The position numbers and the translations under genes are program-made. A model generated the notes under the pieces. That model searched no databases. It was not told the origin of the DNA and saw nothing but the letters and a program-made list of their open reading frames with translations. DNA of 20,868 nt from Simkaniaceae bacterium (GTDB lineage Bacteria > Chlamydiota > Chlamydiia > Chlamydiales > Simkaniaceae), in NCBI GenBank assembly GCA_050248615.1, contig JBFWSA010000035.1:1-20868 (forward strand), written 5' to 3'. Shown piece after piece: positions 18,401 to 20,383 of this stretch (position 1 is the first letter of the stretch; the number at the start of each line of letters is the position of its first letter).

Positions 18401-20383
18401 TTGATGAGGATCAAAGTAGGTACATGTGAGGTGGACAGCGGACTTGATTGTTTGGGTCGCTAGAGGAACAGGGTTCAAGGTGATGCCTGAAAAAAAACCA
18501 GAGATGGCGGTGTTTAGAGCCTCATCTTTTACGGCGTCTTGAAAGAGCGCTGCTTCATACTGGTCTAAAGCCACTCTGTACTTAGCTTTGTGATTTGCAG
18601 CTAAGAAATTTTTGCGGAAAATCTCTTGATGCTCAGGAGACTGAAACTCGTTTGGATGGGTTCCCAAAAGGTTTTGTTCTGCTCGCGCGATAAAATCTCT
18701 GGGGATAACTGAGGGAGGTCTTTTGTAGGGGACACAACGTGAGAAATGGTTTTGATAATGATGGATCAGGATCTCTTCCGCATCGAGGGTTCTATTGATT
18801 TCTTGCGTTACAACGATTTTGCCCTTGTGATGAGAGAAAATAAGGACTTTTTTCTCAAAGAGAAGGGCGGCGAGGTGAATCTCTTGGGTGTTGAGCTGGA
18901 AGGGAGGGATGTGGAGCATCTCGACATAGTGGTTATAGACAGGATCAGATAAGACGAATACCTTTTCTGCAACTTCATACTGGTGGAGAAGGGCGCTCAT
19001 CTCTTCTCGTATTTTAGCGATTCTAGGGTCAGGGACAACCGGAAGAAAGGAGGTTGGGTTTGTATTAACGGTATCGAGAATGAGGCGGGGAGTTTCCTGA
19101 AGAAGTGCGATCACCTCCTCTTCGGATTTTTCTGGAAAGCGACGGGTTAAGGACAAGAAGAGTTTGTGTGTTAAGGAAGGGTTGTTTAAGTGGGTCTTCC
19201 ATAGTTGGGACTCTTGATCTTTTAGAAGGTCTATTTGAGAGGTATAATAATCTTGGAGTTTCTTCCATTCACTTTGGATGTGAAGTCCTGTAGGGGTTGA
19301 TGAAAATAGCATATGAGCGCTCTCGTCCCCTGAAAAGGGATCTAAAGAGCAATTGAGATAAGCAATCAAAACTTCTGCGAGTTTTTTTTCAATAGAGGGA
19401 GAACTGTTACGTTTTGCAGTTAGGGTTGTTGTAAAATGCTTTTTCACTTCAAGAGGGGAAGCTTCCCGGTCTTGCGAAAAGCGATACTCATTTTGATGCT
19501 GGGTCCCCAGGAGAGCTTCGAGAGCGCAGGACCCTTCTCCCAAAGTCGGTTGGGTCATGAAGTAGGAGCCTTTATGTTGAAAATAGAAGGGGTTATATGT
19601 GGCGATAGGGGCTGGAAGGGGTTGGGGAAGTCTTTTGCTTTGAATAAAAAGTTCTAAACGGTGTTTGTCTTCTTTTAGCCAAAGAAAAGCGAGAAGTCTG
19701 GAGTGGATTTCAAGGAGTTTATCTGCAAAGGTAGGGCTAAAAAAGCCTGTCCCTCCCATTGTCATCCAAGTCCCTGCACAGTTGGCCCAGTCTCCGAAAG
19801 TGGTTAGGTAATCATCCCGTTTTTGTTGAAACTCCCACTCGACATCACCCATTTTGATAGGAGATTTGATTCTCCGGAATGTTTTTTTAAGAAGGATGAG
19901 GAAGAGGTGTTGCGTTGTTGCAAAGACTTCTAAGAGTTCCTCTTCACATTCTTTTGAAGGGACCCATTGCTGCTGTGTAGGTTTACCATCAAATGTATAC
20001 CAGGTTTCAAGGCGGGTGAGATCGTTAAAATCTCTTCCTTCTAACACTCTGAGGTAATTCCAGGCTTTATGTATTAAGTTTTTGGGGCCTCGAACATGGA
20101 CAACAAATTCTTGAAAAATGTCTAAAAAACGGGGATCAACTGTTTGTTTTCCGGGTTCAAAAAAATAAGATTTTGTCACTAATTTTTCTGATGCGGATTG
20201 TAGGGCAAGCATGGTGATGGTAACACTTTCCAGACGTCTAAGAGCAGCGTCCATACGGTCCTCTCCTGGAGAGAACATTTTTTGGATGCGACTTTCTAAA
20301 TTCCTATGAAATAAAAGGGTTTGGGAATCTAACCCAAGTTCTCTAGACGATAGCCTCATGTCAGAGGTCTGTATTGAAGACAT
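15497..20383 (-). CDS. Large polymorphic-toxin-like protein: OTU-like protease domain, duplicated internal domain, Pro/Ser linker, GxxxG helices, C-terminal putative RNase tip
   Basis: 1637-aa ORF (likely ATG 20383, MSSIQTS, after GGTGG). Contains TLGEGSCALEALLG and IHHYQNHFSRC boxes and ends ESHIPLEEFKFKEW; followed by immunity and orphan cassettes. Confidence 0.8.
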   Translation of the reverse strand: MSSIQTSDMRLSSRELGLDSQTLLFHRNLESRIQKMFSPGEDRMDAALRRLESVTITMLALQSASEKLVTKSYFFEPGKQTVDPRFLDIFQEFVVHVRGPKNLIHKAWNYLRVLEGRDFNDLTRLETWYTFDGKPTQQQWVPSKECEEELLEVFATTQHLFLILLKKTFRRIKSPIKMGDVEWEFQQKRDDYLTTFGDWANCAGTWMTMGGTGFFSPTFADKLLEIHSRLLAFLWLKEDKHRLELFIQSKRLPQPLPAPIATYNPFYFQHKGSYFMTQPTLGEGSCALEALLGTQHQNEYRFSQDREASPLEVKKHFTTTLTAKRNSSPSIEKKLAEVLIAYLNCSLDPFSGDESAHMLFSSTPTGLHIQSEWKKLQDYYTSQIDLLKDQESQLWKTHLNNPSLTHKLFLSLTRRFPEKSEEEVIALLQETPRLILDTVNTNPTSFLPVVPDPRIAKIREEMSALLHQYEVAEKVFVLSDPVYNHYVEMLHIPPFQLNTQEIHLAALLFEKKVLIFSHHKGKIVVTQEINRTLDAEEILIHHYQNHFSRCVPYKRPPSVIPRDFIARAEQNLLGTHPNEFQSPEHQEIFRKNFLAANHKAKYRVALDQYEAALFQDAVKDEALNTAISGFFSGITLNPVPLATQTIKSAVHLTCTYFDPHQELPLSKVARVGGIPVFQIAAGANPIPIVVSLVVDQTYRHYIFDEIDPGYQDVLIAPLKALITQDPERQVTSGIVSLACRKIHSFYTSQISCDTLDNWGATRTVKILCSNDSFQSFCVEWFIKWLPSDPSIPPEEKPTQPFDPAAIQPKPEPPEVIDLSFTVKQEGKEFHVYQSRPGHDDKQIGSFSSQAEANSWAEKETNQTRIIHFLNLELYHLHLRAYALGILISDLPTVTPFVPLYFSLNAPDKRVKLYQGNTKILDESNGKALTHAKTQVALRFNGQVVSAKNQLKNFEAALNGAAPPHLLPPQGLHEVIHVKQGNEHIYVSGMNQYGETTLIGIFKDPQEADNLAYAKAHYEVTTLDQENRCFQMQVKAFEQGIPIDQIPKIPQLKTPDLKGVKSDRLQPHFRGAEIVNESTTKAFIEQMNQLLSEPFQPDKMTTSEIHTQARSCVPPINSPGEHSYNPDHGYWYNLLRNPRQAVPYTNRWLNDHGIDVNVIFGTSIPLYPSPKPVATHSATQIDLALEKESPSKTSPPPTWTWEDLQAHETASLFQTLNSRPSPQPSSTSPPSFDPTQVDALLRESWGPGVVDPSPSSITLPSMQTAGFAPTLTSPMLASLFPVMDPSILMHSTEENQKLHIALNNDFVKSIPKGVGKVAVGILKFMVPDMSDFPDVENPHEHINRACQFLEIRYDELVHMEDPNSFAAKAGVFVGEIGALGSVGKLVRLAELPALFSTISEGAVVGAIIAEADNHDPLQGAVTGAAIGGSLHKVIGWLHLPSSPKSSEMILEFRPSLFPPKAGLPRQAVSTSLGERTPSMRISGNTLHPLPNIEREALREIATLKGSNRLDVIVRNSCNSRNLNESQIRSILRQNGFNPPPRPPGIPENCKVRISEKNGGIVYIKPGTLERDCIHVRIMPANPESINPMHHRPYVVQRLNNKAFDHNGKLVDWRSPESHIPLEEFKFKEW
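15748..15913. repeat. Direct repeat II, copy 2
   Basis: See 12965-13130. Confidence 0.95.

Follow-up and report, generated by a model that had tools for sequence, protein, structure and literature searches.

A Simkaniaceae genome (2.04 Mb, 96% complete) contains a contig of 20,868 nucleotides (JBFWSA010000035.1 of assembly GCA_050248615.1, our contig C35, analysed here in full and called the window), whose reverse strand encodes a 1637-residue polymorphic toxin followed by its immunity gene. Residues 273–562 of this protein are well supported as an OTU-fold domain within a true toxin-immunity locus, and by its predicted anatomy the domain would work like an effector deubiquitinase (DUB). The fold, the conserved cysteine-histidine dyad, the modularity of the trunk and the pairing of the toxin tip with an immunity protein all emerge from computation, and our best reading, which we hold with about as much doubt as confidence, is that the domain is ubiquitin cargo facing the host, carried as an option by an interbacterial toxin. 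Residues are numbered throughout from the TTG at position 20410, feature coordinates are collected in Table 1, and statements credited to published papers refer to parts of those texts.

AlphaFold modelled the OTU domain with a pLDDT of 96.3 and a pTM of 0.90. When the model was compared with 48,161 chains, rows 1–20 were all OTU domains, aligned over model residues 1–290, the best being OTUD3 (Z 10.8, rmsd 3.3, 132 of 141 residues aligned); the first non-OTU row (Z 7.7) covers only a helical hairpin (helices 109–216). Foldseek returned OTUs in its first twelve rows, led by Legionella Ceg23 (E 0.01), clusters annotated as OTU on 15% of their members came up in a language-model search (score 0.92), and the family profile matches OTUD5 at E 5e-4 and viral OTUs at E 0.01, placing H555 on their His box. 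C295 begins a helix of the model (C23, helix 23–29) and H555 lies on a strand (H283, strand 283–289), and the superposition of the whole core implies that the two would stand within catalytic distance. The first-pass annotation of this DNA had proposed an OTU-like domain from C295 (19526–19528), the stretch NTQEIHLAALL (which begins at residue 507) and H555 (18746–18748), all of which are where it put them, and the fold is as it supposed. Searches with single sequences showed almost nothing: the 1637-residue open-reading frame (ORF) has no Pfam or NCBIfam family above cut-off, a single-sequence phmmer search of the PDB gave one match, taken as chance, and a word-indexed search of longer proteins gave 1 match among 3022 candidates.

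T289, C295 and H555 are invariant in a 32-row alignment of the family; because 29 of these rows had been chosen by a pattern requiring the Cys and the His, conservation was recounted on the 150 best profile matches, a set in which the profile itself favours C and H and some members of which helped to build it. On this count the Cys column is kept in 141 of 145 covering rows, the His in 145 of 147 and both together in 138 of 142, in line with the catalytic roles first given to them. An F or Y, here F556, directly follows the catalytic His in 146 of 147 rows, and such an aromatic residue serves as a gatekeeper criterion for DUBs (PMC10643670). The position of E510 is E or D in 150 of 151 relatives.

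Between C295 and the variable loop (F504) lie 209 residues, helical in the model. This lobe measures 50–60 residues in ordinary OTUs, 110–120 in otubains and 178–210 in the Legionella LOTs (PMC7690952); of the ~210 residues here 50–60 correspond to a normal OTU lobe, a net extra of ~150. The domain had been described as a split OTU with ~200 inserted helical residues, and whilst a helical lobe of LOT size is indeed present, the model points to one continuous OTU domain with an expandable helical lobe. C-to-H spacing is 260 in this copy and 155–306 in 136 of 142 family rows, with a bimodal distribution (22 of 142 rows at 155–199, most others at 232–290). The LOTs (LotA, LotB/Ceg23, LotC; PMC7690952) are alike in joining an OTU core to an extended helical lobe, and Ceg23 superposes on the model over 186 residues (Z 8.7, rmsd 4.5), but they are not fused to immunity-paired tips. 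Because compact OTUs (Z 10–11) score above the LOT structures (Z 6.6–8.7, rmsd 4.5–6.0) and no LOT entry matched the family sequence profile, the helical lobes here and in Legionella may be independent. The accompanying statement that chlamydial OTU DUBs carry large helical insertions was too strong, as SnOTU is otubain-like and ChlaOTU has no recognisable His motif (PMC10643670, PMC7396840).

The other end of the protein identifies it as a toxin. The tip was modelled at a pLDDT of 87 and matches PT7 (8owu) by profile (E 7.5e-4), by Foldseek (rank 1, E 0.023, not significant by itself) and by structural alignment (Z 7.1, rmsd 2.9, 73 of 76 residues aligned, 29% identity); Ntox37, an earlier candidate for the tip (score 0.89), was dropped in favour of PT7. 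PT7 is a DNase that depends on metal and poisons both bacteria and yeast (bioRxiv 10.1101/2021.10.19.465003). Its DHVH stretch aligns to KPYVVQ in the tip, where only the Arg and the last His are shared, and by this alignment the PT7 active site is only partly kept. The PT7(Bc)/PIM7 pair is thus alike in tip fold but differs in the active-site stretch, and PIM7/8owu was not matched by the immunity profile; a match of that profile to ZitR, covering 46 positions, was taken as chance. Of 401 genomes of the phylum, 93 encode relatives of the last 139 residues of the toxin, and an immunity homolog lies directly downstream in 28 of the 29 other tip loci that were fetched, mostly on an unrelated trunk. 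In a second family of chlamydial polymorphic toxins (L051–L079), ~730 residues long, this PT7-like tip and its immunity gene accompany a trunk that resembles helical repeats. The predicted complex of tip and immunity protein scored 0.87, against 0.10 for the best control (116 of 157 solved pairs attained that mark, as did 2 of 215 mismatched ones), its runs share 89% or more of their contacts, the partner has a pLDDT of 89 or higher, and the invariant His of the tip lies in the predicted interface. The gene at 15050–15493 is therefore predicted to be the cognate immunity partner and to bind the tip, and the fusion of the OTU to an immunity-protected tip, as first proposed, is upheld.

Trunk comparison sets the OTU domain apart from the toxin proper. 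Among ORFs of at least 1000 residues, 26 of 28 share the trunk (24 fetched loci and the window), and of these 26 trunks seven carry an OTU, nine another domain in the N-half and nine neither, whilst one is partial and none has both, although the classes stem from few genomes (four for OTU, three for the other domain, two for cargo-free). Six of the trunk OTUs have the long lobe and one is compact (a paralog on contig C12 of the same genome, C33/H155, at the very N-terminus). The paralog on contig C28 is of the long-lobe kind. The PT7-like tip is found on 12 trunks, three with OTU, three with the other domain and six cargo-free, whilst EndoU, Tox-MPTase4 and unnamed tips occur on the same trunk. 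In cargo-free trunks from one genome (G034) segments 58–257 and 602–864 are joined directly. Because nine of 26 trunks carry neither cargo, six of them with the same tip class, the OTU appears from these comparisons to be optional cargo, dispensable for the toxin. The toxin thus shows three features of polymorphic toxin systems, a constant trunk with variable C-terminal tips, an immunity gene directly downstream and orphan cassettes; Pfam and NCBIfam scans found no toxin trafficking domain. Two genomes (G034 and G045, L086–L102) have 14 trunk-segment matches each, with many different tips, and several copies (L034, L035) lie among transposase genes.

The alternative N-half domain gave weak Pfam USP matches (E 0.003–0.05) and aligned to chlamydial USPs with an hhalign probability of 98.2 (E 5e-14); its USP-like identity rests on this one profile-profile comparison, and a PDB profile search did not confirm it. 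Positions of the USP-like domain are L086:3889-4623, L088:10652-11515, L090:8542-9402, L092:12200-13063, L094:7151-7768 and L103:2025-2870, and the source genome itself encodes two USP-family domains above the Pfam cut-off elsewhere (G000:C55:4792-5622 and G000:C8:52008-52928). A second ubiquitin-system fold in place of the OTU on nine of 26 trunks would count in favour of ubiquitin cargo.

The same comparisons bear on the view, raised in the first-pass annotation, that the OTU is an autoprocessing protease which releases the toxin tip. Most Tox-PLOTU domains have been classed as releasing peptidases, internal OTUs are known in Odyssella toxins (PMC3482391), and some processing peptidases are located N-terminally. 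Here, however, the OTU lies ~950 residues ahead of the tip, six sister toxins of the same tip class do without the domain, with its flanking segments joined directly, the compact OTU of the C12 paralog sits in a different place, and 82 of 142 family members, in which the His falls within 30 residues of the C-terminus, have nothing downstream to release. We consider autoprocessing very doubtful.

Optional ubiquitin cargo is also in keeping with where the family is found. A profile search recovered 741 clusters (50% identity, E ≤ 0.001), suggesting a large family that is largely missed by curated profiles, and chlamydial genomes hold all six named loci at which a relative of the domain occurs. 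A tally of 30 of 400 genomes with relatives (which leaves out G005) was inflated, six loci being unrelated (four SNF2-like helicases, an EF-Ts-like protein and one helical protein). Ankyrin, LRR or TPR repeats occur in seven of 42 scanned members, and most members appear effector-like rather than toxins. A stand-alone copy is encoded on another contig of the source genome (C21; L002:3721-5643 in G000, 640 residues), with an intact C/H pair and an HQS Cys loop; this protein ends in a hydrophobic C-terminal tail. In a tree of 145 rows the nine trunk-borne OTUs group with three non-trunk proteins in a single clade (support 0.977), keeping the C/H pair at 25–35% identity, a topology that fits a single capture from the effector pool.

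Taken as a mechanism, we give roughly even credence to the OTU domain removing ubiquitin or a ubiquitin-like protein (Ubl) in the host cell, so as to protect the toxin or clean the vacuole, whilst the tip serves against rival bacteria. The toxin would be exported from the intracellular chlamydia and meet the host ubiquitin system, where the OTU, with C295 as nucleophile, H555 as base and F556 as gatekeeper, would cut after the Gly-Gly end of ubiquitin or Ubl, stripping it from the surface of the vacuole or, as in Spaid, from the toxin itself. The C-terminal PT7-like tip would attack the DNA of co-infecting bacteria, the downstream immunity gene would shield the producer and its kin, and orphan cassettes would swap the tip. 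Catalytic activity, substrate, export route and tip target are what we infer in this scheme. All three RING-H2 genes found in the genome adjoin its three OTU-toxin loci (in the window 1.6 kb past the cassette array; L001:7339-7905; L003:3871-4470), and by this association they too may count for ubiquitin cargo, the RING-H2 gene being a possible partner of the toxin, although a pattern search of 22 trunk loci from other genomes found no such adjacency. Of the other two RING-H2 genes, one lies directly after the immunity gene and one is divergently upstream.

Several observations weigh against an active, host-facing cargo. Foldseek with the OTU model gave nothing at E ≤ 0.001, and this copy has no match to the Pfam OTU family PF02338, a profile that 16 of 32 alignment members match weakly at E ≤ 1 (best 1.1e-4); the long lobe breaks the match to it. 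Residues near the active site depart from the family: E292 at Cys-3, in GEG, is shared with 11 of 145 relatives (the family has D in 111 of 148), E298 at C+3 stands where His is found in 145 of 148 and Glu in none, Q505 replaces a mostly aromatic position (Gln in 3 of 151) and Q553 a mostly Gly one (Gln in 7 of 150). At His+2, where the third triad residue of canonical OTUs is D, N or E (PMC7396840), this copy has S557, as do 112 of 149 relatives, another 24 of 149 having E. The GEG-for-GDG substitution had already been flagged as a caveat, and the Glu is present but proves minor; E298 and the Ser at H+2 had been overlooked. A Leu at His+2 does not prevent SnOTU from being active (PMC10643670), and E292 could serve as a third triad residue of the A20 type. 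The USP-like trunk domain is without a catalytic Cys, the trunk classes come from a handful of genomes, neither ChlaOTU nor wPipOTU showed activity in vitro (PMC7396840), and one chain would have to reach both the host cytosol and a rival bacterium. A base is also missing at 19497, inside the OTU domain, in one contig of run X5 (one of four runs, depth 6.4), either because the allele is broken or because the assembly is wrong there.

These departures could instead mean that the family are DUBs and this copy a weak or dead one, acting only as a ubiquitin-binding or structural module, which we regard as unlikely though by no means negligible. Beyond the four atypical residues, one of which (E298) is absent from 148 relatives, and the one-base loss in a single contig, this view draws on the Cys-less USP fold of sister toxins, which indicates that non-catalytic cargo is tolerated, and on the existence of predicted bacterial OTUs with no activity in vitro (PMC7396840). 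Inactive family versions do exist: in P0061, P0093, P0127 and P0147 one or more aligned stretches show Ser in the Cys column, and two of these proteins are also without the His. The present copy, however, keeps C295, H555, F556, E510, R558 and T289 intact, and its branch length (0.97) is at the family median (0.98). Four studies (of landfill, freshwater, activated sludge and wastewater) supplied contigs that cover 29–30 of 30 gene-region bins, and the contigs listed mostly differ from this copy by 0–3 positions per piece over the OTU domain (one piece by 7), against 9–22 per piece over 15956–18709 (40 of the 172 variant sites are listed in the variant table).

Alternatively, the whole protein may be host-directed, like Wolbachia Cif or Rickettsia pLbAR_38/36, with a nuclease for host DNA, a stabilising OTU and an antidote gene. 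PT7 harms yeast and bacteria alike (bioRxiv 10.1101/2021.10.19.465003), OTU, nuclease and antitoxin are known together in pLbAR_38/36 (PMC6133264), the genome has one FHIPEP-family type III export-gate gene, and the two-compartment problem would vanish. Orphan cassettes with recombination anchors and varied tips on one trunk are, however, the pattern of kin competition (PMC3482391), and the same pair of tip and immunity gene is found on an unrelated trunk that has no OTU, making a wholly host-directed protein improbable.

Table 1 Features of the toxin locus and its surroundings in the window.
Feature	Positions	Strand	Basis
Polymorphic toxin ORF, 1637 residues from TTG	15497..20410	(-)	trunk common to 25 other ORFs
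OTU-fold cysteine protease domain, residues 273–562	18725..19594	(-)	AlphaFold, structural matches, profile match to OTUD5
Cys loop and helix T289–G302, catalytic C295 (19526–19528), atypical E292/E298	19505..19546	(-)	
Extended helical lobe, ~residues 320–499, between Cys loop and variable loop	18914..19453	(-)	all-helical in model
Variable loop and conserved Glu helix F504–K520 (E510), atypical Q505	18851..18901	(-)	aligned with OTUD5 EMQAMA helix
His box I549–C559, catalytic H555 (18746–18748), gatekeeper F556, S557 at third triad position	18734..18766	(-)	
Pre-toxin trunk segment, hydrophobic glycine-zipper-like stretch, residues 1294–1455	16046..16531	(-)	weak Gly-zipper matches, E 0.07–0.4
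Toxin tip, residues 1513–1637, PT7-like predicted nuclease fold, invariant H1626	15500..15874	(-)	profile, Foldseek, structural match to 8owu; pI 9.6
Cognate immunity gene (predicted), 147 residues, acidic (pI 4.8), SCO4402-like below cut-off	15050..15493	(-)	NF047838 E 7.5e-8, 32.6 bits of 50
Small acidic orphan ORF, probably an additional immunity gene	14550..15014	(-)	position, pI 4.6; inferred
Orphan cassette 1, alternative tip (13900–14520) and immunity-like ORF (13412–13894)	13412..14520	(-)	weak PBECR3 match for tip
Orphan cassette 2, paralogs of main tip and of immunity gene	12275..13424	(-)	71% and 80% amino-acid identity
RING-H2 E3-ligase-like gene near cassette array end	9883..10626	(-)	Pfam zf-rbx1 and zf-RING_2 above cut-off

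Downstream of the toxin, cassette 1 has two Pfam matches that fall short of the cut-off (E 0.005 and E 0.001), whilst cassette 2 shares 884 bp at 82% DNA identity with the main pair, and a 141-bp anchor that is 98.6% identical is common to both cassettes. The pre-toxin trunk segment is present in eight of 39 family genomes. At the upstream end, an ATG nine codons downstream of the TTG (20381–20383) is probably the likelier true start of the toxin, because the TTG overlaps a dispersed palindromic repeat. This repeat is ~75 bp long with many copies genome-wide (in the window at 20402–20475, 10988–11061 and 10617–10639), and the bin holding the copy at the toxin TTG is covered far more deeply than the other bins in each of the four runs. 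Three RNA runs contained 0.07–0.10 of the query words. Further along the window (5729–9834), a MORN-repeat gene is flanked by two MptE-like (Maf-type) genes. The host of the source chlamydia is presumably a protist.

The combination of an OTU with an immunity-paired toxin has precedent, in Odyssella and in Rickettsia, and the unusual character first ascribed to this fusion was therefore overstated (PMC3482391, PMC6133264). Tox-PLOTU/OTU toxins of Odyssella, an amoebal endosymbiont, and of actinobacteria likewise place an OTU in an immunity-paired polymorphic toxin, and chlamydiae are listed within the Tox-PLOTU range, but those domains are read as a releasing peptidase or as the toxin itself, (PMC3482391), whereas here the OTU stands well away from the tip, is optional and can be exchanged for a USP-like fold. 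The same paper regards chlamydial OTU proteins (Waddlia) as being without immunity genes and calls immunity-paired toxins rare in intracellular bacteria, and the relevant parts of PMC3417536 add no chlamydial case with immunity. Spiroplasma Spaid also carries an accessory OTU in a larger toxin, with a self-deubiquitination model, but is host-directed, with neither an immunity gene nor a swappable tip (bioRxiv 10.1101/2023.02.08.527603); its OTU protects the toxin from degradation (bioRxiv 10.1101/2023.02.08.527603; PMC13720258). Rickettsia felis pLbAR_38/36 and Wolbachia Cif join a DUB and a nuclease in one chain beside an antitoxin, but have PD-(D/E)XK nucleases and are tied to host reproductive manipulation, no orphan tip cassettes being described in those parts of PMC6133264.

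Among chlamydial OTU effectors, SnOTU of Simkania (PMC10643670) and ChlaOTU (PMC7396840) are the two named in a 2026 review (PMC13720258). SnOTU also is without a canonical third triad residue, but it is otubain-like (C82/H234; PMC10643670), reaches a Z of only 7.0 to our model and has no sequence match; ChlaOTU, with no recognisable His motif, showed no activity (PMC7396840). Neither is toxin-borne. The literature searched, which covered few subscription papers and no supplements, held no description of the OTU family or of the chlamydial trunk, and the long-lobe family, the trunk and the exchange of OTU for USP appear undescribed there.

These results add a large OTU family (741 clusters) with a LOT-sized lobe outside Legionella, and bacterial OTUs often have unusual chain specificities. 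Immunity-paired toxins appear common in chlamydiae, with the tip in 93 of 401 genomes, contrary to the view of their rarity in PMC3482391. Natural OTU, USP-like and cargo-free versions on the same tip class make the purpose of DUB domains in endosymbiont toxins directly testable. More speculatively, and with rather low confidence, these may be two-faced chlamydial toxins, in which an exchangeable ubiquitin slot in the N-half (filled by a long-lobe OTU, a compact OTU or a Cys-less USP, or left empty), here beside a RING E3 gene, would allow an antibacterial nuclease to cross the host cytosol, or to last there, and so to hit rival endosymbionts. If true, this would be interbacterial warfare conducted through a eukaryotic cell and tuned by the host ubiquitin system.

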